A DNA stretch of 43,985 nt from Verrucomicrobiota bacterium (lineage in GTDB: Bacteria; Verrucomicrobiota; Verrucomicrobiia; Limisphaerales; JADLHS01). A program made the translations under genes and the position numbers. The notes beneath the pieces were generated by a model, which had not been told where the DNA came from, did no database searches, and saw only the letters and a program-made list of their open reading frames with translations. Every line of letters starts with the position of its first letter. Position 1 is the stretch's first letter. The stretch is taken from contig DAOLDN010000001.1 of NCBI GenBank assembly GCA_035327385.1, positions 1-43,985 of the forward strand. Reading direction: 5' to 3'. Of the stretch, positions 269-22,800 are shown piece after piece.

Positions 269-631
269 ATGCCCACCTACGTTGACGGATTCGTCATTCC
301 CGTTCCCAAGAAGAAGCTCGCCGCCTACCTGCGCATGGCGAAAAAGGCCGGCAAGATCTGGAAGGAACACGGCGCGCTTGATTACAAGGAATGTGTCGGC
401 GACGATTTGAATGTGAAGTGCGGACTGCCGTTTCCGAAAGGCATCAAAGCGAAGCCCGGCGAGGCCATCGTGTTTTCCTACATCGTTTACAAGTCCCGCA
501 ATCATCGCGACAAAGTCAATGCCGCCATCATGAAAGACCCGCGCATCCACGAGATGTGCGATCCAAATGACATGCCTTTTGACGTGAAACGCATGCTCTA
601 CGGCGGCTTCAAGGCGGTGGTGGAAATCTGA
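269..631 (+). CDS. DUF1428 family protein
   Basis: 120 aa. MPTYVDGFVIPVPKKKLAAY...IVFSYIVYKSRNHRDKVNAAIMKDPR is typical of DUF1428 (YbaA-like) proteins. Confidence 0.8.
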   Translation: MPTYVDGFVIPVPKKKLAAYLRMAKKAGKIWKEHGALDYKECVGDDLNVKCGLPFPKGIKAKPGEAIVFSYIVYKSRNHRDKVNAAIMKDPRIHEMCDPNDMPFDVKRMLYGGFKAVVEI

Positions 632-771
632 ATGTCTGCGGTGAACTGGGCGGGCCATGAGCGCCTCCGCAACAACGGTGACAACGAACAACGCGGAGTT
701 CCATCGCCAGCCCGCCGGCCACACCATCCGGGATTGTCATGCCGTAAAGCCGACGTAGGACGACATCGAAG

Positions 772-1563
772 TCAGAAGTCGGGCGACAGACGGATTCGCG
801 ATTCGATACCTCCCTCTTTTCTCAATAGAACCGAGGGCTTGCCGGTTTCAGGGGCGGGCAGCAGTTCGTAGTAGTCTGTCCCCGTCAATTCCACGGTCTG
901 AGGCGTCATGCAACGGCAGATGAGCGTCGTCAAACCGCCGTCGGCCGCCAGATGCGCAATCGGGCCCATCGCCACCGGGCCATCCTCGATGACCCTCGCC
1001 ACAATCGTGTCAGGAGCGTTGTTGGTGGATTGTTCGACTGCAAACCTGCGACCGGGCAGGGGCGCGCCAAAATGATTCCGGGCGCGGGCTTCGGCCGATT
1101 CCGTCACGATGACGACGCGAGGGTGCGTCGAACCGTCCAACACCTCCCAGATCACGGCCCGATTGCGGGAATCGAGTGTTGCGCGCATGCCCAGCCATTG
1201 ATCGCGGTCCGGCCGGGATCTGTGAGTTTGCATTTCAGTTCGCAACCAAACAAAGGTCATCTGCGGGTGCGGTCGTCCGTTGATCGTGGTTTCGCCAGGC
1301 TCAAATAAAACGACGCGAGGGCCTGAATTGGTTTCCGTGGCGGTCATTTCACAGAGGAACAGCGGCGACAGCACGGCGGACAGATTTGTGCTGCCCGCCT
1401 CCTCGCGCGGTTTGAGCAGCAACGCGCTTTGAAACACGGTGTCGGCTAGATCGTAAGCGGCTTGGGCAATCGGAGCGGACGCGGACGGCGCGCGATGGTC
1501 GCAGCCCGAAAGCCACCCCACTGCGGCGACAAGCAAGACCAGAAACGGAGCGAGTCGTTTCAC
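772..1563 (-). CDS. hypothetical lipoprotein
   Basis: I place the start at GTG 1563-1561, which overlaps the TGA of the upstream epimerase gene (GTGA). The N-terminus VKRLAPFLVLLVAAVGWLSGC is a signal peptide with a lipobox Cys. No recognisable domain. Confidence 0.45.
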   Translation of the reverse strand: MKRLAPFLVLLVAAVGWLSGCDHRAPSASAPIAQAAYDLADTVFQSALLLKPREEAGSTNLSAVLSPLFLCEMTATETNSGPRVVLFEPGETTINGRPHPQMTFVWLRTEMQTHRSRPDRDQWLGMRATLDSRNRAVIWEVLDGSTHPRVVIVTESAEARARNHFGAPLPGRRFAVEQSTNNAPDTIVARVIEDGPVAMGPIAHLAADGGLTTLICRCMTPQTVELTGTDYYELLPAPETGKPSVLLRKEGGIESRIRLSPDF

Positions 1564-3149: not shown

Positions 3150-4304
3150 ATGAAGGTCACCGTCGGCAATCGCACCCGGCATTTTCGCACAGTCACGTTC
3201 GACACGGCGAAGAATTCCGTGCAGCTCATCGAGCAACGTCTTTTGCCGCATGAATTCAAAATCGTCGCCACTCGCGATTATCGGGAAACCGCCCGCGCCA
3301 TCACGGACATGATTGTTCGTGGAGCGGGCGCGACCGGTGCGACGGCAGCCTACGGTCTGGCGCAGGGAGCGCGCGCATTTCGTGGACGCGACCTTGCGAG
3401 GTTCGGGAAACATCTCACGCTTGTATATCAAACACTGAAGACCGCGCGCCCGACGGCGGTGGACCCGGTCAATGCGATGGACCAGGTGCGGGCCGCAATG
3501 AGCGCCGGCAAATCCGTGGACGATCAACAATCGCTCGCTCTGGCCGCGGCGGAAGACTTCGCAAACGAAGATGTGCGGCACTGCGAAGCCATCGGTCGGC
3601 ATGGAGCCGATCTCATCCACAACGGCATGCGCGTTCTCACGCACTGCAACGCGGGCTGGCTGGCGTTTGTGGACGTCGGCTCGGCTACCGCTCCGTTGTA
3701 TGCGGCGCAGGCGCAGGGAAAGAAATTCCACGTTTTCTGCGATGAAACACGTCCGCGTTCGCAGGGTGCAACGCTCACGGCCTGGGAACTGGCGCAACAG
3801 GGCGTTTCGCATCAGATCATTGCGGACAACGCCGCAGGACATTTGATGCAGCGCGGCGAGATTGATCTCGTCATCGTCGGCAGCGACCGCACGCTGGGTC
3901 GCACGGGTGAAGTGACGAACAAGATCGGCACTTACACCAAGGCAGTCCTGGCGAAGCGGCATGGGATCCCATTTTACGTGGCCATCCCGCTTTCGACGAT
4001 TGACTGGAAATTGAAATCCGGCTTCGACATTCCCATCGAGGAACGGCACGAACATGAAGTGCTGGGGGCGTGGGGAATGATTTCAAATCCGCAATCCGGA
4101 GTTCAAGATCTGAAATCCGCACAGCGTGCCTATGTTCGGGTGGCCAATCCCGGCAGTGGAGCGAGGAATCCGGGCTTTGACGTGACGCCGCCGGAACTGA
4201 TCACCGGCATCATCACTCCCGAAGGCGTGTTTAAACCTAATCAACTGTGGCCAAGCAGGATGAAGCTTGGCTTTGCGGGTCGTAACCGGATTGTTTCCAG
4301 ATAG
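3150..4304 (+). CDS. mtnA: S-methyl-5-thioribose-1-phosphate isomerase (eIF-2B alpha/beta/delta family)
   Basis: Matching stretches are LIEQRLLPHEF, AITDMIVRGAGATGATAAYGLA, GSDRTLGRTGEVTNKIGTYTKAVLAKRHGIPFYVA and NPGFDVTPPELITGIITPEGV. Confidence 0.85.
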   Translation: MKVTVGNRTRHFRTVTFDTAKNSVQLIEQRLLPHEFKIVATRDYRETARAITDMIVRGAGATGATAAYGLAQGARAFRGRDLARFGKHLTLVYQTLKTARPTAVDPVNAMDQVRAAMSAGKSVDDQQSLALAAAEDFANEDVRHCEAIGRHGADLIHNGMRVLTHCNAGWLAFVDVGSATAPLYAAQAQGKKFHVFCDETRPRSQGATLTAWELAQQGVSHQIIADNAAGHLMQRGEIDLVIVGSDRTLGRTGEVTNKIGTYTKAVLAKRHGIPFYVAIPLSTIDWKLKSGFDIPIEERHEHEVLGAWGMISNPQSGVQDLKSAQRAYVRVANPGSGARNPGFDVTPPELITGIITPEGVFKPNQLWPSRMKLGFAGRNRIVSR

Positions 4305-4489
4305 ATTTTGACATTGAAGGCAAAGTCGTGTCTTTTACCCGCGTTAAAAGATGAACAACGTGTTCAACAAAATGCAGAAGCTGGTCGCCGTTTATGGTCG
4401 CACGACCATTTGGCAGCGTTCCTGCCTGCATTTGGCAATCGCGGTTGCGAGACAGGAGAGGTGAAGATACGACCAGATTTCTCAAAAAA

Positions 4490-4894: not shown

Positions 4895-5259
4895 AAACAC
4901 CAGCCTTTGAAGTGGGGATTGGGCGCGCGGGGAGTCGTTGTCGCAGTCGCAAGGCCATGTTCTGCGATTCCGACAACGGCTCCTCGTCGCGCCGTTTTGG
5001 TTGCGACCGGCACGGATTGATCTGAACGAAGGGCGCAAACGCGACCCGGATTGTGCGCGAGCGCAGACCGGTTCGCGCCGCCCTCGTTCAGATGACAATG
5101 GGTTGCCTCCCTTCGCCGCTAAACCTGCCAATCGCACCGCAAACATTACGCCAATCCTTTGCTTTACCCGACTTTGTGAAATAAATCACGAAACCTGCTT
5201 GCCCGGCTGCGGCACGCTGTTTAACCTAGAGCAGCGTCAAAACCTGACGCACGATTCCC

Positions 5260-5787
5260 ATGAGTCAGACCACGGAATTCGGCTATGATTCGCGAATTGA
5301 GGGCGATGTCATCCACACCACGGTGGATGCGGCCATCAATTGGTTTCGCAAGAATTCCATCTGGCCGATGCCGATGGGTCTGGCGTGCTGCGCCATTGAA
5401 TTGATGGCCACGGGGGCAAGTCGCTTCGATATTTCCCGGTTCGGCATGGAGGTCATGCGGTTTTCCCCTCGCCAATCGGACGTGATGATCGTGGCGGGCA
5501 CGGTGACTTACAAAATGGCCATGTCGGTGAAACGCATTTACGACCAGATGGCCGAGCCGAAATGGGTCATCGCCATGGGCGCGTGCGCTTCGACGGGCGG
5601 CATGTATCGCAGTTACGCGGTTTTGCAGGGCGTGGACAACATTTTGCCGGTGGACGTTTATGTGGCGGGTTGTCCACCCCGGCCCGAAGCGTTGCTCGAC
5701 GCGCTGATTAAACTTCAAAACAAGGTTCAATGTGAGCCGTTGCTGGCCACTTTGAAGAAACCCGGCCCGGCGCTGGCCAAGGCTTAA
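5260..5787 (+). CDS. nuoB: NADH-quinone oxidoreductase subunit B
   Basis: Matching stretches are [25 protein letters not shown] and [12 protein letters not shown] (N2 cluster cysteines). Confidence 0.95.
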
Positions 5788-5928
5788 ATGAAATTCCAAG
5801 CTCCAAGCTCCAAGCTCCAGAGAAATTCCAAGCCCCAAGCCCCAAGAGCGTGCGGAGTTGATCGGAATTTGAATTTTGGTGCTTCTCTGGTGCTTGGATG
5901 TTGGTCCTTGGAGCTTCCCTTGCCGTGA
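5788..5928 (+). repeat. family A heptamer palindrome, copy 1 (contains a 46-codon bridging ORF)
   Basis: (CCAAGCT)3 and (CCAAGCC)2 on the left, complementary TTGG-type heptamers on the right, with an inverted core CCAGAGAA / TTCTCTGG. ATG 5788 directly follows the nuoB TAA. The TGA at 5926-5928 overlaps GTG 5925. Confidence 0.85.
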
Positions 5929-6599
5929 ACACTATAGATCTCGCCAAACAACTCAAAGCCAAGTTCGGAGATTTGATCTCTGAACCGACGGAGTTTCGCG
6001 GCGAACCATCGGTGAAAGTCGCTGATGCTGAGAGAATTGTTGAAGTCGCTGCCTTTGCCAAAAAAGAACTGGGTTTCGACTACCTCGTGGACGTTTCCAG
6101 CTTGGATAATTACGGCGAAGATCCCCGCTGGACGGTGGTTTATCACCTCTACGGAATCGCCTCGAAACAGTATCTCCGCATCTCCGTTACCGTTAATGAA
6201 GAGAAATCCGAGCTTCCAACGGTCACAACGGTGTGGCGGACGGCGGATTGGCATGAGCGCGAGATTTACGACATGATGGGCATCCGCTTTCGCGGTCATC
6301 CCGATTTACGCCGCATTCTGATGTGGGAAGGCTATCCCTATTTCCCTCTGCGCAAAGACTTTCCGTTGGCTGGCAAGCCGAGCGATATGCCCGAAGTGGC
6401 GTTTTCGAAGCCTGCTCCGATGGAGGGGGGGCCATTTGTGACGATTGCGGGTGGCAATGATTCCATTGCCCGTGAGCCGCGGGTGAGAATTCCTGGGACT
6501 GATTCCATTGAATTCAACAATCGCGTCGAAGCGCGCTCTGACAACAAGGAAACCCGCGGTCAGGCGTTTGGTCCCGGCCCAATTGAACCGAAGAAGTAA
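5925..6599 (+). CDS. nuoC: NADH-quinone oxidoreductase subunit C
   Basis: WHEREIYDMMGIRFRGHPDLRRILMWEGYPYFPLRKDFP. I place the start at GTG 5925 (VNTIDLAKQLKAKFG). The alternative ATG 5898 lies inside the repeat. Confidence 0.88.
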   Translation: MNTIDLAKQLKAKFGDLISEPTEFRGEPSVKVADAERIVEVAAFAKKELGFDYLVDVSSLDNYGEDPRWTVVYHLYGIASKQYLRISVTVNEEKSELPTVTTVWRTADWHEREIYDMMGIRFRGHPDLRRILMWEGYPYFPLRKDFPLAGKPSDMPEVAFSKPAPMEGGPFVTIAGGNDSIAREPRVRIPGTDSIEFNNRVEARSDNKETRGQAFGPGPIEPKK

Positions 6600-7894
6600 T
6601 GCCTGAAGTTCACGACATTGAGATTCGCGATTCTGCCGCCCGTGCTGCGGTGGCGGCTAAATCATTGCCGCATCCCATAGAAGAAGATTTGCAGGACATG
6701 CAGGGGGAAAAGATGGTCCTCAACATGGGGCCGTCGCACCCGTCCACGCATGGCGTGTTGCGCATCATTCTGGAATTGGATGGCGAAATCATCACCAAGG
6801 CGATTCCGGACGTGGGTTATTTACATCGTGGCGACGAGAAAATCGCCGAGAACATGACTTACACCCAGTTCATCCCTTACACGGATCGGCTGGATTATCT
6901 CGCGCCGCTGGCGAACAACGTCGCCTACGCGCTCGCGGTGGAAAAACTTCTCGGCATTCACGACAAACTTCCACCCCGCTGCCAATACATCCGCGTGATT
7001 TGCTGCGAGCTGGCGCGCATTTCGTCGCACTTGCTCGGCGTCGGCTGCTTCGCGATGGACGTCGGCGCGATGACGGTGTTCCTGCTTACGTTCACCGAGC
7101 GGGAAAAGATTTACAACCTCGCCGAGGCCCTCAGCGGCGCACGGTTCACGACGAGTTACACACGCATCGGCGGCGTTTCCCGTGACACGCCGCCCGGTTG
7201 GTGTGCAGCGGTACGCAAGTTCATCAACGAAGTCCTCGTCAACATTGACGAAGTCGAGACGCTGCTTACGCGCAACAAAATCTGGGTGGACCGCACGAAG
7301 GACGTGGGCGTCATCTCCAAGGCGGACGCGATTGACTTCGGACTCAGCGGTCCGAATCTCCGCGGCAGCGGCGTGAATTACGATTTGCGCAAAGATCAGC
7401 CGTATCTTTGCTACCAGGATTTGCAGTTCGATGTGCCGCTCGGCGAAGTCGGCGATTGCTACGATCGCTATCTCGTCCGCATGGAAGAGATGCGCCAGAG
7501 CGTGCGCCTCATCCATCAGTGTCTCGACAAAATTCCCGGCGGTTTCGACAACGCATCAAAAGAACCGGTCAATGTGGCCGATGGCAAAATCGTTTTGCCA
7601 CCGAAAAACAAAGTCATGTCGAGCATGGAGGAATTGATTCATCAATTCATGCTCGTGACGCAGGGTGTGAATTGTCCGCCCGGCGAAGTTTATTTTGGCC
7701 ACGAAAATCCGAAGGGTGAACTCGGCTTTTACATCAACAGCCGGGGCGGTGGCACGCCGTATCGGATGAAGATCCGCAGCCCCAGCTTCGTGAATCTGAG
7801 CATCCTGTCGCATCTGTTGCCCGGCCACATGATGAGCGACACGGTTTCGATCCTGGGCTCGTTCGACTTTGTGATGGGAGAATGTGACCGATGA
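6599..7894 (+). CDS. nuoD: NADH-quinone oxidoreductase subunit D
   Basis: MVLNMGPSHPSTHGVLRI...GECDR C-terminus. The ATG overlaps the nuoC TAA by 1 nt (TAATG). Confidence 0.95.
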   Translation: MPEVHDIEIRDSAARAAVAAKSLPHPIEEDLQDMQGEKMVLNMGPSHPSTHGVLRIILELDGEIITKAIPDVGYLHRGDEKIAENMTYTQFIPYTDRLDYLAPLANNVAYALAVEKLLGIHDKLPPRCQYIRVICCELARISSHLLGVGCFAMDVGAMTVFLLTFTEREKIYNLAEALSGARFTTSYTRIGGVSRDTPPGWCAAVRKFINEVLVNIDEVETLLTRNKIWVDRTKDVGVISKADAIDFGLSGPNLRGSGVNYDLRKDQPYLCYQDLQFDVPLGEVGDCYDRYLVRMEEMRQSVRLIHQCLDKIPGGFDNASKEPVNVADGKIVLPPKNKVMSSMEELIHQFMLVTQGVNCPPGEVYFGHENPKGELGFYINSRGGGTPYRMKIRSPSFVNLSILSHLLPGHMMSDTVSILGSFDFVMGECDR

Positions 7895-8044
7895 ACTTTG
7901 CCGCAAAAGAACGCAGAGAACACAAAGGAGCGCGGGTCTGTGACCCGCAGCGGCCCGCTTTGTATTTGAACGTGCTGCGGCTCACAGAGCCGCGCTCCGC
8001 AGAGGTTTTTTGTGCTCTTTGTGTTCTTTCGTGGCTAACATAAA
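7895..8044 (+). repeat. composite element: family B arms enclosing a 72-nt family F palindrome
   Basis: Left arm ACTTTGCCGCAAAAGAACGCAGAGAACACAAAGG (7895-7928). Right arm TTTTGTGCTCTTTGTGTTCTTTCGTGGCTAACA (8007-8040). The inner palindrome 7927-7998 has 25-nt arms GGAGCGCGGGTCTGTGACCCGCAGC / GCTGCGGCTCACAGAGCCGCGCTCC. A 50-codon ORF 7891-8043 bridges the nuoD stop to the nuoE start. Confidence 0.8.
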
Positions 8045-8530
8045 ATGAGTTTCACTGTTCCAGCCAACTTGGAAGCCGAGATTGACGAGCTGATCACGCA
8101 TTATCCCGTGAAGCGCAGTGCGTCGCTCATGTTGCTGCACGCGTTGCAGGAGCACTTCGGCTACATCTCGCCCGAAGCGACCGAATGGGTCGCAAAGAAA
8201 CTCGGTTTGCAACCCATCAACGTTCACGAACTCGTGACGTTCTATCCAATGTTCCGTCAGTCAGCGCCGGGCAAATATCAGATCAAGGTCTGTCGCACGT
8301 TGAGCTGCGCGCTCGGTGGTTCGCACAAGTTACACGAACATTTCTGCACCAAACTCGGCCTCGATCCGCACGCGCACGGGTTGCAGACCTCGAAGGATGG
8401 CAAGTTTTCGGTCGAATTTGTGGAATGTCTTGCCGGTTGCGGCATGGCACCGGTGATGATGTGCAACGAGGATTTTTACGAAGGCGTCACGAACGCCAAA
8501 GCGGACGAAATCATGGGAGGCTGCAAATGA
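8045..8530 (+). CDS. nuoE: NADH-quinone oxidoreductase subunit E
   Basis: 2Fe-2S motif CRTLSCALGG ... VECLAGCGMAPVMM. Confidence 0.95.
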   Translation: MSFTVPANLEAEIDELITHYPVKRSASLMLLHALQEHFGYISPEATEWVAKKLGLQPINVHELVTFYPMFRQSAPGKYQIKVCRTLSCALGGSHKLHEHFCTKLGLDPHAHGLQTSKDGKFSVEFVECLAGCGMAPVMMCNEDFYEGVTNAKADEIMGGCK

Positions 8531-9003
8531 AGAAGCCGGGCCTCTATCTTGAAACCTCGATTGTGAGTTATCTCACCGCGAGACCGGCGAAAGATTTGAA
8601 CACGGCGGCGCACCAACAGATTACGGTGGAGTGGTGGGACACGAAGCGGAAGGGTTTCGACATCTACATCTCGAACGTGGTGGTGCGGGAGGCGGCTGCG
8701 GGTGATGCGGAAGTTGCGCAACGACGGTTAAAGATTTTGAAACCACTGCCGTTATTGCCGATCAACCGCGAGGTAGTCGCGCTCGCCCGAAAGTTTGGCA
8801 AGTTGGGCTGCGTGCCAGCGAAGGCCGCAGACGACGCTCTGCACATCGCGCTGGCGGCAGTGCATGGCGTACATTTTCTACTGACGTGGAACTGCACGCA
8901 CATCAACAACGTGGCGACGATTGATGAGATTCGGGAAGTTTGTGAGAATCATGGCTATGCATGTCCGGTCATTTGCACCCCGGACGAGTTGATTCGAATT
9001 TGA
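8527..9003 (+). CDS. PIN-domain (VapC-like) protein
   Basis: The ATG overlaps the nuoE TGA (ATGA). LYLETSIVSYL, a central acidic stretch, and DDALHIALAAVHGVHFLLTWNCTH resemble the PIN fold. The upstream part of the track ORF (8185-8526) is an out-of-frame overlap of nuoE. Confidence 0.65.
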   Translation: MKKPGLYLETSIVSYLTARPAKDLNTAAHQQITVEWWDTKRKGFDIYISNVVVREAAAGDAEVAQRRLKILKPLPLLPINREVVALARKFGKLGCVPAKAADDALHIALAAVHGVHFLLTWNCTHINNVATIDEIREVCENHGYACPVICTPDELIRI

Positions 9004-9006
9004 GTT

Positions 9007-9222
9007 ATGAAAGATCCAATTATTGCAGAGCTTCGTAAGATCCGCGATGCGCATGCTGCGAAGTTCAACTATGACTTCGATGCCATCGCTGCCGACTGGT
9101 TTAAGCAGGAGGCTGCTGCCCGGCGTGCTGGCCAAAAGTTTGTGGACTTGTCCGCCAAGCGAAAGCCGCGCCCGCGTCATCGTTCGGTTACGGTGAAGTC
9201 CAGCAAGGGGCGCAAAGCGTGA
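9007..9222 (+). CDS. small basic-tailed protein, putative partner of the PIN protein
   Basis: 71 aa, starting 3 nt after the PIN gene. MKDPIIAELRKIRDAHAAKFNYDFDAIAADW followed by a Lys/Arg-rich tail. Confidence 0.5.
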   Translation: MKDPIIAELRKIRDAHAAKFNYDFDAIAADWFKQEAAARRAGQKFVDLSAKRKPRPRHRSVTVKSSKGRKA

Positions 9223-9251
9223 ATCGCAAATCCGAAATCGTAAATGGAGAG

Positions 9252-9325
9252 TGGTTGCCCGACATGGATTTGAACCATGACAAACAGATTCAGAGTCTGC
9301 TGTGCTACCGTTACACCATCGGGCA
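9252..9325 (-). tRNA. tRNA-Gln (anticodon CUG), CCA encoded
   Basis: The reverse complement folds as a cloverleaf. Acceptor UGCCCGA/UCGGGCA. D arm GUGU-AACGGUA-GCAC. Anticodon stem GCAGA/UCUGU with loop CUCUGAA. Variable region UUGU. T arm CAUGG-UUCAAAU-CCAUG. Discriminator A, then CCA. 74 nt. Confidence 0.85.
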
Positions 9326-9378
9326 AACCGACGTGTCGCACAGGCTAGATATTTCCCTCTCAGAGTCAAGAAACTGAT

Positions 9379-10803
9379 ATGCCGCAAGAGTTCAAACTCA
9401 TCCTGAAGCACGCCGACCAGCCGGGTTACACCCCCGACATCGAATGCTATTTGCGGCACGGCGGCTATGACGCGCTCAAGAAGGCACTCGCGATCCAGCC
9501 TAAGGATTTGGCTGACGGCAAGAAAGCGTCGCCGCAGGAACAGATTCGCGATGACGTGAAGCTCTCCGGCTTGCGCGGTCGCGGCGGTGCGGGTTTCTCG
9601 TGCGGACTCAAGTGGAGCTTCGTGGATCGTCGCAGCGGCAAGCCCATTTACCTGATCTGCAACGCCGACGAATCCGAGCCCGGCACGTTCAAGGATCGTC
9701 AGATCATCCACAAAGATCCGCATCAGCTCATCGAGGGCATGATTATCTCGTGCTTCGCGAACGACGTGAAGCTTGCCTACATCTACATCCGCGGCGAAAT
9801 GCCGAAGGGAGCAAAGTTGCTGAACGCGGCTTTGGCCGAAGCGCGCGCGAAAAATTTTCTCGGAAAAAACATTCTCGGCAGCGGTTACGATCTGGAGATT
9901 CATGTGCATCGCGGCGCGGGGGCTTACATCTGCGGCGAGGAGACTGGCCTGATCGAATCGCTCGAAGGCAAGCGGCCTTATCCGCGCATCAAGCCGCCGT
10001 ATTTCCCGGCGGTGCTTGGGCTCTACATGTGCCCGACCATCGTCAACAACGTCGAGACGCTCTGCAACGTGAAGCACATCGTCGCGATGGGCGGCGCGGA
10101 GTTCGCCAAGCTCGGCACGCCGAACAACACCGGCACGCGCATCGTGAGTTTGAGCGGTCAGGTGAAACGCCCCGGCTATTACGAAATCGAAGTCGGCAAG
10201 GTCACGCTCGGCCAGTTGATCAACGATGCGAATTTCGGCGGCGGCTTGCGCGATGGTCGCAAGCTCAAGGCGATTATTCCCGGCGGCTCGTCCTCGAAGA
10301 TTTTGAAAGCGAGCGAGAAATTCAAACTCAAGCGCAAGGTGGACGGCAAGGACGTTGAAATTGAAACCGACGTGCTGGATTTGCCCTACGATTTTGATTC
10401 GCTCATGGCGGCGGGCACGATGTCTGGTTCGAGCGCGATCATCGTCATGGACGACAGCGTGGACATCGTCGAAGCGCTGGCGAATCTCAGTGAATTTTAC
10501 GCGCACGAAAGCTGCGGCCAATGCACGCCGTGCCGCGAAGGTTCGCTTTGGATGAGCAAGACGTTGCATCGCCTCACGCACGGTCACGGTCGCAAGGGCG
10601 ACGCGGATTATCTCGAGAAGATCGCGAACAACATCCCCGGCGGCCGCACGATCTGCGCGTTCGGCGAAGCGTGTTCGTGGCCGGTGCAAAGTTTCGTCGC
10701 CAAATTCCGGGACGATTTCGTCGCGAAAGGCGCAGCGGACGAAGAGCGCAACAAGCAGGCCACGCCCGCGAAGGAAAAGAATTTAGCCGCAGCCGCACAC
10801 TGA
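9379..10803 (+). CDS. nuoF: NADH-quinone oxidoreductase subunit F
   Basis: Matching stretches are GRGGAGFSCGLKW, GAGAYICGEETGLIESLEGKRPYPR and ESCGQCTPCREG. Confidence 0.95.
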   Translation: MPQEFKLILKHADQPGYTPDIECYLRHGGYDALKKALAIQPKDLADGKKASPQEQIRDDVKLSGLRGRGGAGFSCGLKWSFVDRRSGKPIYLICNADESEPGTFKDRQIIHKDPHQLIEGMIISCFANDVKLAYIYIRGEMPKGAKLLNAALAEARAKNFLGKNILGSGYDLEIHVHRGAGAYICGEETGLIESLEGKRPYPRIKPPYFPAVLGLYMCPTIVNNVETLCNVKHIVAMGGAEFAKLGTPNNTGTRIVSLSGQVKRPGYYEIEVGKVTLGQLINDANFGGGLRDGRKLKAIIPGGSSSKILKASEKFKLKRKVDGKDVEIETDVLDLPYDFDSLMAAGTMSGSSAIIVMDDSVDIVEALANLSEFYAHESCGQCTPCREGSLWMSKTLHRLTHGHGRKGDADYLEKIANNIPGGRTICAFGEACSWPVQSFVAKFRDDFVAKGAADEERNKQATPAKEKNLAAAAH

Positions 10804-10818
10804 TAAACTATAAGACGT

Positions 10819-11052
10819 ATGAGCACGACAACTGAAAAAGTTTGTATCGAAGCCCTGAGCCTCCCGCGCGATGCCCGGGCGGAGATCGCCCATCGTCTGC
10901 TGGTGAGTTTGGAGACCGAAGATTTCTCGGATGACGTCAGCGAAACTTGGAAAAGCGAGATCAACCTGCGGCGGCAGGATTTCCGCGAAGGAAAGGCGAA
11001 TGCCGTATCCGCCGAAGAAGCAATCCGTCGCGCCCAGGCTGCGATTGAATGA
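10819..11052 (+). CDS. putative addiction-module antitoxin
   Basis: 77 aa. ALSLPRDARAEIAHRLLVSLE...WKSEINLRRQDFREGKA resembles the 'addiction module component' antitoxin family. It precedes a RelE/ParE gene with an ATGA overlap. Confidence 0.7.
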   Translation: MSTTTEKVCIEALSLPRDARAEIAHRLLVSLETEDFSDDVSETWKSEINLRRQDFREGKANAVSAEEAIRRAQAAIE

Positions 11053-11345
11053 AACCCGTCATCCTTCACTGTGAAGCCGATGTTGAACTTACCGCCGCCG
11101 CCAAGCGTTATGCTTGTCAAAGTCCTGAGTTGGCTCGGGACTTCGTGCGGGCGTTCCGCGCGGCGAAGGATGCCATTGAGAAGCAACCGGATCGCTTCTC
11201 CTTTCTGGACAAACCAGTCCGGCGAGTACGGGTTTCCGGGTTTCCGTATCGAATCGTTTACGAAGAAATGGACAACTGTGTTCAAGTGTTGGCGGTCATG
11301 CACGACAGCCGCGAACCCGGTTATTGGAAAAGCAGATTGAGTTAA
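11049..11345 (+). CDS. RelE/ParE-family toxin
   Basis: 98 aa. EL..AAKRYA...FPYRIVYEEMDNCVQVLAVMHDSREPGYW is the typical plasmid-stabilisation toxin pattern. Confidence 0.8.
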   Translation: MKPVILHCEADVELTAAAKRYACQSPELARDFVRAFRAAKDAIEKQPDRFSFLDKPVRRVRVSGFPYRIVYEEMDNCVQVLAVMHDSREPGYWKSRLS

Positions 11346-11347
11346 AC

Positions 11348-13093
11348 ATGTCCGCCGTCGCCACAACTGAAACCAAGCCCGCGCCGCCCGTGATCGAAAA
11401 GATCAAGGTGAAGGTGGACGGGCGCGAAATCGAAGTGCCGAAGCTCTCGCCGGATCACACCGGCAAGCTCGTGCCCACGACGATGATTCAGGCGACCGAA
11501 GCCGCGAAGACGGATGTGCCGCATTATTGCTATCACCCGAAGCTGCCCATCGCCGGCAATTGCCGCATGTGTCTCGTCGAGTTCGGCACGCCCGCGCTCG
11601 GCCCAGATCGCAAGCCGGTGATGAACCCCGACGGCACGCCGAAGATCGCGAAGTCGCCGCGCCCGGCCATCGCCTGCGCTACGCCGATTTCGCCTGGCAT
11701 GGAGATTTACACCAAGACGCCCGCCGTGAAGCAAATGCGCGAGGGCGTGTTGGAATCGCTGCTCATCAATCACCCGCTTGATTGTCCGATCTGCGACCAG
11801 GCCGGCGAATGCAAGCTCCAGGAATATTCCGTGGACTACGGCCAGAGCGCGAGCCGCTTTGTCGAGGCGAAGGTTCACAAGCCCAAGGCCGTTGATCTCG
11901 GGCCGCGCATCATGCTCGATGCGGAACGTTGCATTCTCTGCACGCGTTGCATCCGCTTCACGCGCGACGTGGCAGGCGACGACGCGCTCGGCATCGTGAA
12001 TCGCGGCAGTTACAACACGATCGCGACGTATCCGGGCATGCCGTTCAACAACAACTACACGTTGAACACCGTGGACATCTGTCCGGTGGGCGCGCTCACG
12101 TCGAAGGATTTTCGTTTCCAGATGCGCGTGTGGTTTCTCAAGGAAACCAAGAGCGTCTGCACGAGTTGCGCGACGGGCTGCAACATCCTCATCAGCTCGC
12201 GCGAGGAGAAGATTTACCGCTACACGCCGCGCGACAATGACGGCGTCAACGGCCCGTGGATGTGCGACGCCGGGCGCTTGAACTACAAGTGGATTCAGCG
12301 CGAAGACCGCTTGAAAGACGTTTTGGTGCGCGGCGAAAAATCGTCGTGGACCGTGGCGCTCAGCGAGATCGCCGACAAATTGAAGCAAGCTCCGGCAGGC
12401 TCGGTGGCGATTGTCGCGTCCGCGCGGCAGACGAACGAGGAACTCTGGCTGTTAAGCAAGCTCAAAGCGAAGCTCGGCGCGATCAGTGATTCCGTCCCAC
12501 GCATCGGCAAGGGCGACAATCTGCTCGTGGACGAGGACAAAAATCCGAACACGAACGGCGCGCGCCTCACCGGCATGAGCTTTACCGAGATGGGAATCAA
12601 CCTCTCGAAGATCGCGGCGGGCATTGCGCGCGGCGAGATCAAGACGTTGATTGTCTTCGGCGAGGATTTGCTGATGAATTCGGTCCAGAGCGACAAGCTG
12701 CGCGAGAAGGAACTCACCAGCGAAGTCATTAGCGAACACGGCATCACGGCGGAACTGCTCGGCAAGCTGGACACGCTCATCGTGAGCGACATCTTGCCAA
12801 ACGCGACGGCGAAATATGCGCACTACGTGTTGCCCGGCTGCGCGCACGCCGAGAAACGTGGCTCGTTCACGAATCGCGACGGTCGCGTGCAAAAGTTCAT
12901 GCAGGCGATCCAGCCCAAGGGCGACGCGCGCGCCGAATGGGATTTCCTGCACGATCTGGTTTTCAACGTCACCGGCAAGAATGGTTTCCTGACCATCGAA
13001 GGTTTGTTCAACGAGATGGCAAAAGATGTTCCGGCGTTCAGCGGCCTCACCTGGGCCGGCTTGGGTGATGCGGGTGTGACAGTGAAGATTTGA
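11348..13093 (+). CDS. nuoG: NADH-quinone oxidoreductase subunit G
   Basis: Start at ATG 11348, 2 nt after the RelE TAA. Matching stretches are CYHPKLPIAGNCRMCLVEFG, HPLDCPICDQAGECKLQE, CILCTRCIRF and CPVGALT. Confidence 0.92.
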   Translation: MSAVATTETKPAPPVIEKIKVKVDGREIEVPKLSPDHTGKLVPTTMIQATEAAKTDVPHYCYHPKLPIAGNCRMCLVEFGTPALGPDRKPVMNPDGTPKIAKSPRPAIACATPISPGMEIYTKTPAVKQMREGVLESLLINHPLDCPICDQAGECKLQEYSVDYGQSASRFVEAKVHKPKAVDLGPRIMLDAERCILCTRCIRFTRDVAGDDALGIVNRGSYNTIATYPGMPFNNNYTLNTVDICPVGALTSKDFRFQMRVWFLKETKSVCTSCATGCNILISSREEKIYRYTPRDNDGVNGPWMCDAGRLNYKWIQREDRLKDVLVRGEKSSWTVALSEIADKLKQAPAGSVAIVASARQTNEELWLLSKLKAKLGAISDSVPRIGKGDNLLVDEDKNPNTNGARLTGMSFTEMGINLSKIAAGIARGEIKTLIVFGEDLLMNSVQSDKLREKELTSEVISEHGITAELLGKLDTLIVSDILPNATAKYAHYVLPGCAHAEKRGSFTNRDGRVQKFMQAIQPKGDARAEWDFLHDLVFNVTGKNGFLTIEGLFNEMAKDVPAFSGLTWAGLGDAGVTVKI

Positions 13094-13265
13094 TTTGTAG
13101 CAGCCGACGAACGCGACGGACAATTCTGCAACAAGCTGTTGCAGGATTTGACGCAGCACGGGCTGGGAAGTCTGCGCTACGAACAGTGCGGTTTCGCGGA
13201 AGTCAGAGTGAACTTGCCGCCGGGCGGCGTGACAATCGAGATCTGATTGGCAATAGTATTGAGGT

Positions 13266-13481
13266 ATGAGTGTGACACTTGAACTACCGTTCCAGGTAAC
13301 GGACGAAGAAGTGCGGCTGGCGCTGGCGGTGCGGCTGTTTGAGAAAGGCCGCGTGACGCTTGGGCAGGCGGCAAAACTGGCGGGCTTCACCAAACGCGCC
13401 TTTATTGACGTGCTGGGGCGCGAAGGCGTGCCCGTCTCAAACTATCCGGCTGAAGAACTCGAAAAGGAAGTTCGCCGGTGA
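13266..13481 (+). CDS. UPF0175-family antitoxin-like protein
   Basis: 71 aa. LAVRLFEKGRVTLGQAAKLAGFTKRAFIDVLGREGVPV is the UPF0175 pattern. Confidence 0.75.
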   Translation: MSVTLELPFQVTDEEVRLALAVRLFEKGRVTLGQAAKLAGFTKRAFIDVLGREGVPVSNYPAEELEKEVRR

Positions 13482-13927
13482 GCCGCATCATCGTCAGCGA
13501 TAGTGCGTGCTTGATTGGACTCGAACGAATTCAACAACTCGATTTGTTGCCGGGCTTGTTCGATGAGGTGTTTGTGCCGCCCGCAGTCGCTGCTGAGTTT
13601 GGAACTCCGCTTGCGTGGCTGAAAGTGCGCGCACCGCAAGACGCGGGGTTCGTCTCCGCGATGAAATTGCTGGCTGACGACGGCGAAGCGGAAGCAATCG
13701 CCTTGGCAAAGGAACTCGGTTGTGAAGTGATTCTGGACGATTTACCCGCGCGCAAACTGGCGGCAAAACAAAATGTCAGTGTTGTCGGGCTGCTTGGTTT
13801 GCTGGTGCGTGCGAAAAACTCCAGGCGGTTGACCGAAATTCGTCCGTTGGTCGAGGCGCTGCGTCGCGAGAATTTCTTTTTCAGCGAGGCGCTGGTTGCC
13901 GAGGCCCTGCGGCTGGCGCGGGAATGA
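13478..13927 (+). CDS. DUF3368 (PIN-like) protein
   Basis: The GTG overlaps the upstream TGA (GTGA). IIVSDSACLIGLERIQQLDLLPGLFDEVFVPPAV...GEAEAIALAKELG. The UPF0175/DUF3368 pairing is a recurrent module. Confidence 0.75.
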   Translation: MSRIIVSDSACLIGLERIQQLDLLPGLFDEVFVPPAVAAEFGTPLAWLKVRAPQDAGFVSAMKLLADDGEAEAIALAKELGCEVILDDLPARKLAAKQNVSVVGLLGLLVRAKNSRRLTEIRPLVEALRRENFFFSEALVAEALRLARE

Positions 13928-13936
13928 TTTATTGAA

Positions 13937-15013
13937 ATGATTGAGTGGTTTAATAATTTGGATGCGACAACGCAGTTCGTGATTTTCACGGGCCTCAAAG
14001 CCGTCGCGTGCTTCGCCATCATGATGACCATGGTGGCGTACACGGTCGTGCTCGAACGCCGGCTCTGCGCGTGGATTCAAGATCGCATCGGACCGAACCG
14101 GGTCGGTCCGTTCGGCTTGTTGCAGCCAGCCGCCGATGGCATTAAAGCCTTCTTCAAAGAAGAGATTACCCCGGCCCATGTGCGCAAAGTGTTCTTCACG
14201 CTGGCGCCGATGATTGCACTCATCCCGGCCATTCTGAATCTCGCGGTGATTCCGTTCGGCTCGAATCTCGGCGATCAAAAGATGGTCCTCGCCGACCTCA
14301 ACGTCGGCATTCTCTACACGTTTGGCATCGTCTCGCTGGGGGTTTACAGCATCGTGCTGGCGGGTTATGCGAGTAATTCCAAGTTCCCCTTCCTCGGCGG
14401 CATTCGGTCCACGGCACAGATGATTTCCTACGAAATCGCCATGGGCATGAGCGTCATCCCGATCTTTCTCTTTGTCGGTAGTCTCAATTTGAGCGACGTC
14501 ATCGCCGCGCAAACCGGCACGCAACTCGGCTTCCTGCCGAACTGGTTCGTGCTGCAAAGCCCGATGACGTTCCTCGCGTTCTGCATTTTCCTCGTGGCGG
14601 CATTTGCAGAAACGAACCGCACACCATTCGATTTGCCGGAAGCCGAGCAGGAACTCGCGGGCGGTTACAATATCGAATACAGCTCCATTAAATTTGCGAT
14701 GTTCTTCATGGGCGAATACGCGGCCATGATTTTGGTGTCGGCCATCATGGTAACGCTGTTCTTTGGCGGCTGGACGTTGCCGTGGTTTGGCCTCGATCAC
14801 GCGGCGACCACGCTGCTCGGCGGCCTGCTGCACATCGGCATTTTCCTCGGAAAGGTTTTTCTGTTCCTCGTGATGTTCGTCTGGATTCGCTGGATGTGGC
14901 CGCGCTTCCGGTACGATCAACTGATGGACTTGGGCTGGCGGCGGTTTATTCCGGTGGCGCTGGCAAACATTGTGATCACCGCGGTCTGGTTGTGGTGGCA
15001 AAGCGGCAAATAA
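13937..15013 (+). CDS. nuoH: NADH-quinone oxidoreductase subunit H
   Basis: Multi-TM ND1-like protein. Matching stretches are DRIGPNRVGPFGLLQP and PFDLPEAEQELAGGYNIEYSS. Confidence 0.95.
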   Translation: MIEWFNNLDATTQFVIFTGLKAVACFAIMMTMVAYTVVLERRLCAWIQDRIGPNRVGPFGLLQPAADGIKAFFKEEITPAHVRKVFFTLAPMIALIPAILNLAVIPFGSNLGDQKMVLADLNVGILYTFGIVSLGVYSIVLAGYASNSKFPFLGGIRSTAQMISYEIAMGMSVIPIFLFVGSLNLSDVIAAQTGTQLGFLPNWFVLQSPMTFLAFCIFLVAAFAETNRTPFDLPEAEQELAGGYNIEYSSIKFAMFFMGEYAAMILVSAIMVTLFFGGWTLPWFGLDHAATTLLGGLLHIGIFLGKVFLFLVMFVWIRWMWPRFRYDQLMDLGWRRFIPVALANIVITAVWLWWQSGK

Positions 15014-15014
15014 C

Positions 15015-15557
15015 ATGATCGTCAAACGCAAACCATTGAATCTCGCGGAGCGGCTTTATTTGCCGGCCATCATCGGCGGCTTCAAAGTCACGCTGCGCCA
15101 TCTCTTCAAAAAGAAGGTGACGATGCAGTATCCCGAAGAGAAATGGGTCGTGCCCGAAGGTTATCGCGGCGCGCCATATCTCGTGAAGGATCAGGAAGGC
15201 AGCACCAAGTGCGTGAGCTGCCAGCTTTGCGAATTCGTCTGTCCGCCGAAAGCCATCAAAATTACGCCGCCCGGTCCAGCAGGCCAACTCGCGGATCGCC
15301 CGAACGCGGAGAAGATGCCAAAGGAATTCGAGATCAACATGCTGCGGTGCATCTTCTGCGGCTTCTGCCAGGAAGTCTGCCCCGAGGAAGCGATCTTCCT
15401 GCAAAAAGATTATTCGCTCACCGGCACGAGCCGCGCGGAGATGATTTACAACAAAGAAAAACTCCTCGCCCTCGGCGGCACACACGCGGGCGTCCAGAAA
15501 TGGAAGCACAAAGCGGAAGAAGCCAAGGCGCAGGAAAGTTTCCCGGTGAAAGTGTGA
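15015..15557 (+). CDS. nuoI: NADH-quinone oxidoreductase subunit I
   Basis: Two 4Fe-4S motifs, CVSCQLCEFVCP and CIFCGFCQEVCP. Confidence 0.95.
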   Translation: MIVKRKPLNLAERLYLPAIIGGFKVTLRHLFKKKVTMQYPEEKWVVPEGYRGAPYLVKDQEGSTKCVSCQLCEFVCPPKAIKITPPGPAGQLADRPNAEKMPKEFEINMLRCIFCGFCQEVCPEEAIFLQKDYSLTGTSRAEMIYNKEKLLALGGTHAGVQKWKHKAEEAKAQESFPVKV

Positions 15558-15559
15558 CG

Positions 15560-15694
15560 ATGAAGCTCCAAACACCAACATCCAACATCCAGGGAAGCAC
15601 CAAGCTTCAAGCTCCAATCGAGGCGCGCGGCGGTATTGGTGTTTGGGATTTGGATGTTCTCTGGAGCTTGGAGCTTGGAGCTTGGAATTTTTAG
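15560..15694 (+). repeat. family A heptamer palindrome, copy 2 (44-codon bridging ORF)
   Basis: ATG 15560 lies 2 nt after the nuoI TGA. The TAG at 15692-15694 lies 1 nt before the nuoJ ATG. Contains a (CCAACAT) array, CCAGGGAA...TTCTCTGG, and (GGAGCTT)3. Confidence 0.85.
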
Positions 15695-15695
15695 A

Positions 15696-16202
15696 ATGGC
15701 AATCCCCGACATCTTATTTTACGTCTTCGCGATTGCGACGCTCTTATTTGGGGCGCTCGTCGTCGCGAATCCGTTTAGCCGCAACCCGGTCACGAGCGCG
15801 ATGTTTCTCGTGCTCACGATTATTTCCATGGCGGGATTGTTCGTGCTGCTGCACGCCTTCTTCCTCGCGGCCGTGCAAGTGGTGGTTTATGCAGGCGCGG
15901 TCATGGTGCTGTTTCTCTTCGTCATCATGCTGCTCGATTTGAAGGAGGAAGAGCGTCGCAAAATCAAACTGACAGGGTTGGTGGCAGGCGTGATTTCTGT
16001 CGGAGCCATCGTCGGCATCTTTATCCGCTCGCTGCTGGCAACACATCCGGGCAAAGACGCAAACCCCGCCGCAATTGGCGACACCGCCGCGCTGGGCAAA
16101 TTACTGTTCACGAAATATCTGCTGCCGTTTGAAATCATCTCCGTGTTGCTGCTGGTGGCGATGGTGGGCGTGATTCTCCTAAGCAAAAAGGACCTAAAAT
16201 AG
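15696..16202 (+). CDS. nuoJ: NADH-quinone oxidoreductase subunit J
   Basis: Start trimmed to MAIPDILFYVFAIATLLFG, outside the repeat. Hydrophobic ND6-like protein. Confidence 0.9.
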   Translation: MAIPDILFYVFAIATLLFGALVVANPFSRNPVTSAMFLVLTIISMAGLFVLLHAFFLAAVQVVVYAGAVMVLFLFVIMLLDLKEEERRKIKLTGLVAGVISVGAIVGIFIRSLLATHPGKDANPAAIGDTAALGKLLFTKYLLPFEIISVLLLVAMVGVILLSKKDLK

Positions 16203-16706
16203 CCGCGAAAGAACGCAAAGAACACATAGAAAGGAGATTCAAACATGCAAACCAAGACCATCAACGACCTGTGCGACAGCGTGAGGCAGACGGCGTATGA
16301 CGTTCATGTTTATCATGGCAACGGACATTTGGAGAAAGTGTATGAGAATGCGTTGGCAAATCGGCTTCGGAAAGCGGGCTTCGACGTGAAGCAACAGCAT
16401 CCGCTAAAGGTTTATGACGAGGACAGCACGGTCATCGGCGAATACTTCGCCGACCTCTTGGTTGATGGTCGCCTGATTGTCGAATTGAAAGCAGCCAAGA
16501 CTGTCGCCGACGAGCACGTCGCGCAAACGCTTGGCTATTTGAAAGCGTCGCGGATTGAGCATGGGTTGCTGATCAACTTTGGCTCATATCGTTTCCAGAT
16601 TCGGAAGTTCGTGTTGAGCAAAGGCAAGGTGAGCGAGGAAGGTTTAGGGCGATTGGCTTGCCTTCTGCCTTTTCTCTTTGCGATCTCTGCGTTCTTTCGC
16701 GGCTAA
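16200..16706 (+). mobile_element. TIR-bounded cargo unit carrying the GxxExxY gene (family B arms)
   Basis: Perfect 16-bp inverted repeat AGCCGCGAAAGAACGC (16201-16216) / GCGTTCTTTCGCGGCT (16689-16704). The nuoJ TAG and the cargo TAA both lie inside the arms. Confidence 0.45.
16245..16706 (+). CDS. GxxExxY protein (PD-(D/E)XK nuclease superfamily)
   Basis: GHLEKVYENAL is the GxxExxY motif. ADLLVDGRLIVELKA is a D...ExK nuclease core. Strong SD AAGGAG 8 nt upstream. The C-terminal tail is encoded by the right repeat arm. Confidence 0.8.
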   Translation: MQTKTINDLCDSVRQTAYDVHVYHGNGHLEKVYENALANRLRKAGFDVKQQHPLKVYDEDSTVIGEYFADLLVDGRLIVELKAAKTVADEHVAQTLGYLKASRIEHGLLINFGSYRFQIRKFVLSKGKVSEEGLGRLACLLPFLFAISAFFRG

Positions 16707-16714
16707 AAAAGAAA

Positions 16715-17020
16715 ATGAATGTCGGCCTTGAACATTATTTAGTGGTCAGCGCGCTGTTGTTTGCGCTGGGCCTGCTCGGCGTCATCGTGCGGCGCAATCT
16801 CATCGTGATTTACATGTCGCTGGAGTTGATGCTCAATTCGGCGAATCTCGCGCTCGTCTCTTTTTCGCGGTTCAACGACAACCTCAACGGCCAGGTGATG
16901 GTGTTCTTCATCATCACCGTGGCGGCGGCGGAAGTGGCGGTGGGCCTGGCGCTGATCGTGGCGCTGTATCGCAAACGCCGGTCGGCACATGTTGAAGACC
17001 TGACGAGCATGAAACTTTGA
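16715..17020 (+). CDS. nuoK: NADH-quinone oxidoreductase subunit K
   Basis: Start trimmed to MNVGLEHYLVVSALLFALGLLGV. 101 aa, ND4L-like. Confidence 0.92.
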   Translation: MNVGLEHYLVVSALLFALGLLGVIVRRNLIVIYMSLELMLNSANLALVSFSRFNDNLNGQVMVFFIITVAAAEVAVGLALIVALYRKRRSAHVEDLTSMKL

Positions 17021-17021
17021 A

Positions 17022-17162
17022 ATGAAGCTCCAAGCACCAACATCCAACATCCAGAGAAGCACCAAGTCTCAAGCTCCAATCGGGGCGAGCGGCGATTTTG
17101 GTGTTTGGGATTTGGATGTTCTCTGGAGCTTTGAGCTTGGAGCTTGGAATTTTCCGGAATGA
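17022..17162 (+). repeat. family A heptamer palindrome, copy 3 (46-codon bridging ORF)
   Basis: ATG 17022 lies 1 nt after the nuoK TGA. The TGA at 17160-17162 overlaps the nuoL ATG 17159 (ATGA). Confidence 0.85.
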
Positions 17163-20714: not shown

Positions 20715-20739
20715 GCAACGATTTTAACCTGACGCGTCT

Positions 20740-22233: not shown

Positions 22234-22254
22234 ATCACCACCTGAATTAAAATT

Positions 22255-22791: not shown

Positions 22792-22800
22792 CTCAATTTG

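Follow-up and report, generated by a model that had tools for sequence, protein, structure and literature searches.

A family of palindromic repeats lodged between the genes of a verrucomicrobial nuo operon is, judging from sequence comparison, probably a dispersed selfish element of Verrucomicrobiota whose operon copies preserve translational coupling, each by way of a short open reading frame (mini-ORF) joined to the genes on both sides. The stretch of DNA analysed (hereafter the window) comprises 43,985 nucleotides of a Verrucomicrobiota bacterium (positions 1 to 43,985 of contig DAOLDN010000001.1, assembly GCA_035327385.1). It contains four related imperfect hairpins of 135-144 nt, here called Family A, at the nuoB|nuoC, nuoI|nuoJ, nuoK|nuoL and nuoM|nuoN junctions, and each hairpin is spanned by one mini-ORF of 44-47 codons joined to both neighbouring genes. 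The joining is a property of operon copies, or of one subfamily, and not of the whole family.

In the mechanism proposed here, a ribosome ending the upstream gene would re-initiate on the mini-ORF, whose start lies from −4 to about +4 nt from the upstream stop in most copies, and in translating it would melt a hairpin of −50 to −60 kcal/mol. The ribosome would then terminate on or beside the next start, and either re-initiate there or leave that start unfolded for a new ribosome; the insertion would thereby leave the coupling between subunit genes unbroken. Re-initiation/scanning and RNA unfolding are two established models of translational coupling (PMC12548453), and the mechanism would join them; it also agrees with the reported dependence of coupling on overlaps or very short distances (PMC10666635). 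A hairpin that is translated might also be less likely to serve as a terminator or a nuclease substrate.

Four joined hairpins in the nuo operon

All four elements are on the forward strand. Copy 1 (nuoB|nuoC, 5788-5928) has arms at about 5791-5850 and 5860-5917 and a 46-codon mini-ORF; the nuoB TAA (5785-5787) stands directly before its ATG at 5788, and its TGA (5926-5928) overlaps the nuoC GTG at 5925, a start that is kept as GTGAAC in relatives. In copy 2 (nuoI|nuoJ, 15560-15694; 44 codons), the nuoI TGA (15555-15557) is followed by cg and the ATG at 15560, and the mini-ORF TAG (15692-15694) is separated by a single a from the nuoJ ATG at 15696, where the NCBIfam match to the NuoJ profile starts. 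The 46-codon mini-ORF of copy 3 (nuoK|nuoL, 17022-17162) begins at 17022, one nucleotide (a) after the nuoK TGA (17018-17020), and its TGA (17160-17162) overlaps the nuoL ATG at 17159 as ATGA. Copy 4 (nuoM|nuoN, 24339-24482; 47 codons) has ATGA overlaps at both ends, between its ATG at 24339 and the nuoM TGA (24340-24342) and between its TGA (24480-24482) and the nuoN ATG at 24479. The flanking genes are identified as NuoB/C, NuoI/J, NuoK/L and NuoM/N by NCBIfam, and the profile alignments fit the proposed downstream starts. The original prediction, made from the sequence alone, had described four related heptamer elements at these places; all four are found there with their period-7 arms and core, and its mini-ORF peptides and all eight stop/start junctions are reproduced exactly.

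Identity is 93% between copies 2 and 3 and 72% between copies 2 and 4. Tandem Repeats Finder detects period-7 arrays in both arms of all four copies (left, TCCAAGC, CCAAGCC, AACATCC, AAGCTCC and AAGCACC; right, TGGAGCT), each holding just 2-4 imperfect units. The arm units take the form CCAANNN on the left and NNNTTGG on the right, around a core CCAGRGAA/TTCYCTGG; the combination CCAGRGAA-NNN-CCAA is found 10 times over both strands, where 0.3 would be expected, and none of 100 shuffles reaches 10. Freedom from stops in all six frames is true of the heptamer arms and not of the whole elements, which have stops in their centres and in the variant heptamer TTTGAGC of copy 3. The encoded peptides are alike, being basic and polar in their N-terminal halves and having much W, L, G and F in their C-terminal halves, and a Pfam scan of the four returned no match. 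At gathering thresholds, the only Rfam match in the window is one tRNA, with none to a Family A copy, and a permissive Rfam search around copy 3 gave chance-level microRNA-type matches only.

Start codon, open frame and exit phase across the family

Family A loci were gathered by an exact-pattern scan with one genome per species, which returned at least 117 loci, nearly all in metagenome-assembled genomes (MAGs) of Verrucomicrobiota (labelled Pedosphaera, Chthoniobacterales, Opitutae, Lacunisphaera and similar). Because the scan used the arm pattern without a start codon, the sample is unbiased toward ORF-bearing copies. An nhmmer profile built from the four window copies and run on these loci, sampled as 8-kb stretches, and on the window gives 159 sites, of which 91 are full length (108-180 nt, four of them from the window). 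The element ends read (ATG)AAAGCTCC...GGAGCTTTTCC, and the pattern CCAANNNCCAANNNCCAGRGAANNNCCAANNNNCAA is put forward for screening Pedosphaera, Chthoniobacter and Opitutus genomes.

Gene context, called by a codon log-odds model for which 201 long ORFs served as training set, is co-directional for 51 of the 91 full-length copies, convergent for 12 and divergent for 6, the rest being unclear or at a contig edge; Family A is therefore not confined to operons. Copies lying mostly outside operons, or with stops in the bridging frame, are not what is seen, 51 of 91 being co-directional and no ATG-bearing copy having such a stop. Two simpler ways of calling the flanks were rejected: the longest ORF, since the stop-free elements lengthen antisense ORFs, and a rule based only on GC content at third codon positions, which misclassified two window copies.

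Stop trinucleotides on both strands of the 91 members number 369 against 1204 expected, a 3.3-fold depletion, and their density per nucleotide is 0.008-0.02 in the arms and 0.04-0.05 in the centre. The start codon is a feature of context. An ATGA lies within 16 nt before the first heptamer at 21 of 51 gene-end sides of co-directional sites, compared with 1/24 convergent gene-end sides (p=8e-4), 1/51 gene-start sides (p=1e-6) and 8/129 of all other ends pooled (p=7e-8). These counts imply that the ATG belongs neither to the palindrome itself nor to gene ends in general. The idea that it forms an intrinsic palindromic terminus (ATGAA...TTCAT) was rejected, as right ends read GCTTTTCC rather than TTCAT and convergent and divergent ends have no ATG.

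When an ATG stands close to the upstream stop, the frame that it opens crosses the whole element without a stop in 23/23 copies, while the other two frames are open in about 59%; such a bridging ORF is present in 23 of the 51 co-directional full-length copies. The mini-ORFs leave the element in phase +1 relative to the downstream gene in 18 cases, in +2 in three and in frame in two, and fixed element length does not explain this bias, because ORF length varies from 42 to 59 codons. About 12 of the 23 mini-ORF stops are the TGA of the ATGA or GTGA at the downstream start, and most of the remainder fall 2-17 nt before that start or 4-7 nt after it.

The joining was scored by a relay test, which requires each start to lie within about 12 nt of the previous stop and the final stop to lie between −25 and +8 of the downstream start. 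At tight co-directional Family A sites, 17/36 spacers pass with ATG only, compared with 5/36 when the spacer is reverse-complemented and 8% when it is shuffled; with any NTG start the figures are 23/36, 7/36 and 20%. Joining in every copy, as first proposed, thus describes the window (4/4) and not the family, in which 17-23/36 tight co-directional copies are bridged and convergent or divergent copies have no ATG. The frame in which the mini-ORF reads the CCAGAGAA core also varies, ..LQR.., ..SRE.. and ..PE.. readings all being used. On this sequence evidence, the conserved property appears to be openness and phase, not the peptide sequence.

Empty sites and other repeats at the same junctions

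Scanning metagenomes with NuoK yielded 80 related loci, and 61 nuoK|nuoL junctions were compared. Among these, a spacer of 3 nt is the most frequent (18 cases) and 27 junctions have one of 2-4 nt, so tight coupling is the ancestral state. In the closest relatives (97-98% NuoK identity) the empty site reads TGA-CGG-ATGAAACTCGAAG, a form seen in L118, L119, L133 and L173, and in the window the filled site reads TGA-A-[ATGAAGCTCC...GGAATTTTC]-CGGA-ATGAAACTCGAAG. The empty nuoB|nuoC site of L118 and L119 consists of TGA, 10 nt and GTGAAC, that of nuoI|nuoJ in L118 reads TGA-TTCAGAAGAA-ATG, and at both junctions the window retains the original spacer of about 10 nt on the right side of the element. 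The uninterrupted nuoM|nuoN junction of L118 has an apparent ATGA overlap, its frame being read by eye. On the simplest reading of these sites, the inserted DNA would have carried its own ATG and landed directly after the upstream stop. A further locus, L142, has a Family A copy at nuoJ|nuoK with the same ATG-bearing left end and nearly the same peptide, joined at both ends.

Other repeats occupy the nuo junctions of relatives: CATCCAA-type heptamer palindromes, CCGAAAT-type heptamers, CAACGAT arrays, CCACGAATGGACACGAAT elements and GTAGCCGCGAACGTCAGTCCGCG elements, with at least six element types in our own grouping of the spacer sequences. The CATCCAA type, with units CATCCAA, CATCGAA and CATTCAA, forms a sister subfamily at nuoK|nuoL, of which seven diverged copies align without internal gaps and with an ATG in 7/7; the spacer is exactly 117 nt in five diverged relatives (L127, L128, L136, L152 and L192). 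Applied to 38 junctions holding other families (spacers of 60-330 nt), the relay test is passed by 26/38 with ATG only, compared with 0/38 reverse-complemented and 4.5% shuffled, and by 32/38 with any NTG, compared with 6/38 and 24%. Several of the 38 are relays of two or more ORFs, and in L125 and L123/124 ATGA overlaps link the successive ORFs (read by hand). The predicted nature of Family A, an element resembling repetitive extragenic palindromic sequences (REPs) or miniature inverted-repeat transposable elements (MITEs) with translationally transparent operon copies, is supported by the context-specific ATG, the open frame and the exit-phase bias, and also by relatives in which the orthologous sites are empty and by unrelated elements that are likewise bridged at these junctions.

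The same geometry could in part be a by-product of insertion. If the element targeted stop/start overlaps and duplicated the ATGA, the left ATG would be a duplicated start and the open frame a consequence of stop-less heptamers, with neither selection nor translation needed. About 12 of the 23 bridged copies do have ATGA or GTGA at each end, the flank similarity reaches beyond ATGA in copy 4 and L001, the arms are stop-poor by composition, and tetranucleotide direct repeats are described at filled sites of mycobacterial interspersed repetitive units (MIRUs; PMC3184786). However, inspection of the flanks revealed no general classical target-site duplication at Family A copies, and copies without the ATG also have no flanking direct repeats (judged by eye on end sequences, without statistics). 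The right-hand ATG lies 3-15 nt past the palindrome end and not directly against it, and nuoB|nuoC, nuoI|nuoJ and nuoK|nuoL keep the original spacer on the right only, which favours entry immediately behind the stop, the ATG having come within the inserted DNA. Duplication would also leave unexplained the 18:3:2 phase bias over ORFs of 42-59 codons, the 23/23 open ATG frames and the two-ORF relays in unrelated elements (0/38 in ATG-only reverse-complement controls), and the gap-free alignment of the sister subfamily suggests that phased ORFs persist over long divergence. This explanation is regarded as unlikely.

Several points nevertheless weigh against the proposal that operon copies of Family A preserve coupling. 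Both the translation of the mini-ORF and coupling as the selected property are things that we infer from sequence, and an insertion mechanism duplicating the target ATGA would yield part of the pattern. Since stops are rare in the arms by composition, an open frame proves little by itself, and the case depends on the ATG, the phase and the controls. About 35-50% of tight co-directional copies (13-19/36) have no relay ORF, so copies can do without a bridging ORF. For the MAG loci, gene frames and downstream starts were assigned by the heuristic codon model and not taken from curated annotation, with at least one start (that for copy 1) mis-assigned; the loci are a non-random and partly non-independent sample; and some of the 38 other-family junctions are orthologous or near-identical (L122-124; the group with 117-nt spacers), which puts the effective n below 38.

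Gene-carrying copies and in-frame fusions

In L029, L037 and L071, Family A arms enclose 400-500 nt coding for a 'four helix bundle protein' (TIGR02436/PF05635; Avd-like), a member of the family whose genes are found in the intervening sequences of 23S rRNA; such cargo is absent from the four window copies. The cargo ORFs extend over 3828-4301 in L029 (E=7e-17; element span 3828-4375) and 2446-2916 in L037 (E=3e-16; element span 2446-2990), and that of L071 (about 520-1150, reverse strand) is closely similar to both by eye. In these copies the left-end ATG and left arm are in frame with the cargo ORF, whose stop overlaps, as ATGA, the ATG of a frame reading through the right arm. The right-arm mini-ORF terminates on the downstream start in L029 and L037, as TAATG or ATGA, and in L071 its frame runs on into a downstream M23-peptidase-like gene as a signal-peptide-like N-terminus. 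The short elements thus resemble a cassette of the type of 23S rRNA intervening sequences (IVSs) from which the cargo is missing; the reverse order, in which a gene became lodged in the loop of a short element, is possible.

Elements in frame with the downstream gene are seen at 3225-3360 in L115, at about 520-1150 in L071 (reverse strand) and at 3406-3585 in L036. In these in-frame fusions the right arm codes for a hydrophobic stretch, ...GAWSFSGAWMLVLGAF..., followed by an AxA-like site, and resembles a signal peptide.

Hairpin stability and conservation

Each window copy folds into one long imperfect hairpin with an RNA minimum free energy of −52 to −62 kcal/mol (z-scores −3.5 to −5.0), and 0/200 shuffles fold as well. 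The arms are incompletely complementary, often only the CCAA/TTGG part of the heptamer pairing. Double changes that compensate each other affect 11 of the 31 stem pairs of the sister subfamily, and paired cells amount to 84.8%, compared with 77.6 ± 1.5 on shuffling (0/500 reach the observed value) and 25-44% when partners are slid. The hairpin is maintained, which may be due to selection on RNA or to concerted evolution, and the compensated stem, with the fixed 117 nt and the invariant ATG, suggests that the sister subfamily is an old insertion held under constraint on both frame and structure.

Such stability raises the question of an RNA device, in which the hairpin would be an RNase III site (like the stems of 23S rRNA IVSs), an mRNA stabiliser or a weak bidirectional terminator, and translation of the mini-ORF would tune its formation and so set how much each operon segment yields relative to the others, beyond simply neutralising an insertion. 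Besides the stability of the hairpins and the compensatory changes in the sister stem, such a role would fit the slightly better folding of the sense strand (32 copies versus 18, p=0.03; 199 G-U pairs in sense versus 160 in antisense), the short T-runs that follow many right arms (3-5 nt in the window copies), and the architecture that the gene-carrying form shares with RNase III-cleaved IVS elements (PMC4990558). However, copies occur in all intergenic contexts and the strand asymmetry is weak; an intrinsic terminator consensus scan of 5000-24990 flagged none of the four elements; and close relatives have no elements at the same junctions, so that the nuo operon does not require them. A device of this kind, which is compatible with preserved coupling and does not exclude it, is quite unlikely as the explanation.

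A phase-variable switch, in which gain or loss of a heptamer would shift the exit frame and toggle coupling of the downstream cistron, was part of the original prediction. It draws on the fact that 7 is not a multiple of 3, so that one unit more or less shifts the frame, and on the slippage-prone nature, in principle, of tandem heptamers. Yet arrays of 2-4 imperfect units make poor templates for slippage, the great majority of the copies observed hold the coupling phase, and orthologous spacers keep both length and frame, those of the sister subfamily being exactly 117 nt in five diverged relatives with no internal alignment gaps; the switch is highly improbable. Functional small hydrophobic peptides, also suggested at the outset, are hardly credible: although the peptides look alike and the in-frame fused right arms of L115 and L071 resemble signal peptides, the likeness follows from shared DNA, all three frames relative to the CCAGAGAA core are used so that no peptide sequence is conserved, Pfam gives no match, and unrelated elements with unrelated peptides share the geometry.

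Relation to known repeats

MIRUs often occur as tandem arrays. They are dispersed intercistronic mycobacterial repeats, with units of 40-100 bp that contain imperfect inverted repeats both at their ends and internally, and they serve in mycobacterial genotyping; the ends of their ORF overlap the flanking stop and start (−4 spacing, ATGA), and their insertion is interpreted as having little effect on downstream expression by virtue of coupling (Supply et al. 1997, as described in PMC12548453 and PMC3184786). Like them, Family A sits between operon genes with an internal ORF joined to both neighbours (4/4 window copies). It is set apart, by description, as a single heptamer-armed hairpin of 108-180 nt in a verrucomicrobial host, with ORF-less copies outside operons and copies with a gene in the loop. 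We know of no sequence relationship between the two. By analogy, Family A would work like a mycobacterial MIRU without being a member of the MIRU family.

The gene-carrying copies (L029, L037 and L071) have the architecture of the 23S rRNA IVS of Coxiella burnetii, an inverted-repeat stem around an S23p ORF that is cleaved by RNase III (PMC4990558): a long stem with TIGR02436 in the loop. Unlike IVSs, which lie in helix 25 or 45 of 23S rRNA, Family A lies between protein-coding genes, is chained into translation and is mostly cargo-less.

With MITEs and REP-like repeats (ERIC, Correia, Nezha, BIMEs), Family A shares the character of short, non-autonomous, dispersed intergenic inverted repeats that form stable RNA hairpins, and it resembles MITEs in being small, with terminal inverted repeats and no transposase in the element. 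It differs in its periodic heptamer arms and in an ORF systematically joined to both neighbours at operon junctions. No general target-site duplication is seen by eye, and the 8-kb loci fetched contain no transposase-bearing partner; the only longer forms found in them carry the TIGR02436 gene. REPs and REPINs, which go with a RAYT transposase, are built on a 20-40-bp palindrome with a GTAG or CGTC head (PMC3733652), whereas Family A is longer and its ends differ. Some MITE-type elements are fused to chromosomal ORFs (PMC3184786), and the Rickettsia palindromic elements lie inside genes, in frame, and add peptide segments (Ogata et al. 2000, cited in PMC3184786). Family A sequence likewise tolerates translation, although mostly as a separate relay ORF between genes, with few N-terminal fusions (L115, L036 and the right-arm frame of L071) and a half-element in argJ.

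Seven-nucleotide units are also known elsewhere, the cyanobacterial STRR sequences being abundant intergenic arrays with a 7-nt unit. In Beggiatoaceae, the TAACTGA repeats are abundant intergenic 7-nt direct repeats, with one inverted case only (PMC4679880). Both differ from Family A in unit sequence and host, and TAACTGA does not form paired complementary arms. To our knowledge, no bridging ORF has been reported for STRR or TAACTGA repeats.

Our literature search yielded nothing specific on these verrucomicrobial elements or on repeat-flanked TIGR02436/GxxExxY cassettes. The MIRU principle is already known; the element type, the phylum, the generality over several families and the relay chains appear to be new.

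Implications

If operon copies of Family A do preserve coupling, translational coupling would limit which mobile-element insertions survive in operons, strongly enough for statistical detection, and the MIRU solution would have had a separate origin in a second phylum, within a hairpin of different structure and in several families together. Two coupled cistrons with a hairpin of −50 to −60 kcal/mol exactly between them would offer a natural system for tests of the re-initiation and RNA-unfolding models. Annotation should also take note: in verrucomicrobial MAGs, thousands of 'hypothetical proteins' of 40-60 codons may be repeat relay ORFs, and repeat arms may account for some N-terminal extensions or signal peptides.

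More tentatively, ribosome relay could be a general rule in Verrucomicrobiota, with at least six unrelated selfish repeat families using operon stop/start junctions as safe sites and persisting only as stop-to-start ORF chains; the evidence leaves this a real possibility, though one we would not yet call probable. Were it true, the families would include heptamer palindromes and cassettes of the four-helix-bundle or GxxExxY type, in chains of sometimes two or three ORFs in series, the stop-poor six-frame heptamer design would be an adaptation of the element to translation in any frame, and in-frame copies could seed new N-terminal signal-like segments.

Other repeats in the window

A second palindromic family is represented at nuoD|nuoE (7891-8043, forward strand), with arms at 7897-7927 and 8005-8036 (GCCGCAAAAGAACGCAGAGAACACAAAG and its complement). 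It shares the geometry of Family A: its 50-codon mini-ORF starts with an ATG that overlaps the nuoD TGA as ATGA and ends with a TAA 1 nt before the nuoE ATG at 8045. Further copies of the arm lie at 16200-16230, 16675-16705 and 28882-28911, the first two being the 31-nt inverted repeats of a gene-carrying form of this repeat at nuoJ|nuoK (16200-16706, forward strand). Between them lies a GxxExxY/PD-(D/E)XK gene (16245-16706; PDDEXK_3, TIGR04256), which is preceded by its own AAGGAG Shine-Dalgarno sequence and whose ORF crosses the right arm and stops 9 nt before the nuoK ATG at 16716.

Within argJ, a lone arm ATGAAAA(CATCCAA)x4 (34962-34999, forward strand) is in frame and codes for ...GNENIQHPTSNIQHRT... 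/ ...NENIQHPTSNIQH...; its heptamers are those of the sister subfamily that relatives have at nuoK|nuoL, and over the matched stretch ArgJ exceeds the profile by about 34 residues. Upstream of argJ and overlapping the 5' end of its ORF is a 40-nt inverted repeat of the type TCTCCCTCACCCTGACCC...GGGAGAGGG (33879-33918 and 33997-34036), a motif also present in elements at nuo junctions of L120, L123 and L173.

Two further sets of heptamers are present. Downstream of argC, (GAATGAA)x4.4 at 30085-30115 and (GTCATTC)x4.9 at 30330-30363 lie about 215 nt apart, and inspection of this palindrome (30085-30363) revealed no convincing relay ORF. Arrays of GATTTAC/GATTTGC, a separate period-7 family, occur at 42225-42259, 42864-42912 and 9211-9239; the last is complementary to the other two and adjoins a tRNA gene (9255-9325).

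A 26-nt near-perfect palindrome, ATTGTCGCCGCACTGNGGCGACAATT, is present three times (19090-19115, 19288-19313 and 19395-19421) in an ORF at 18895-20145, just downstream of the nuoL stop (19033), and one of these copies is terminator-like on the minus strand. Finally, a 115-nt direct repeat, 81% identical, occurs at 36330-36444 and 41350-41464, 5 kb apart.

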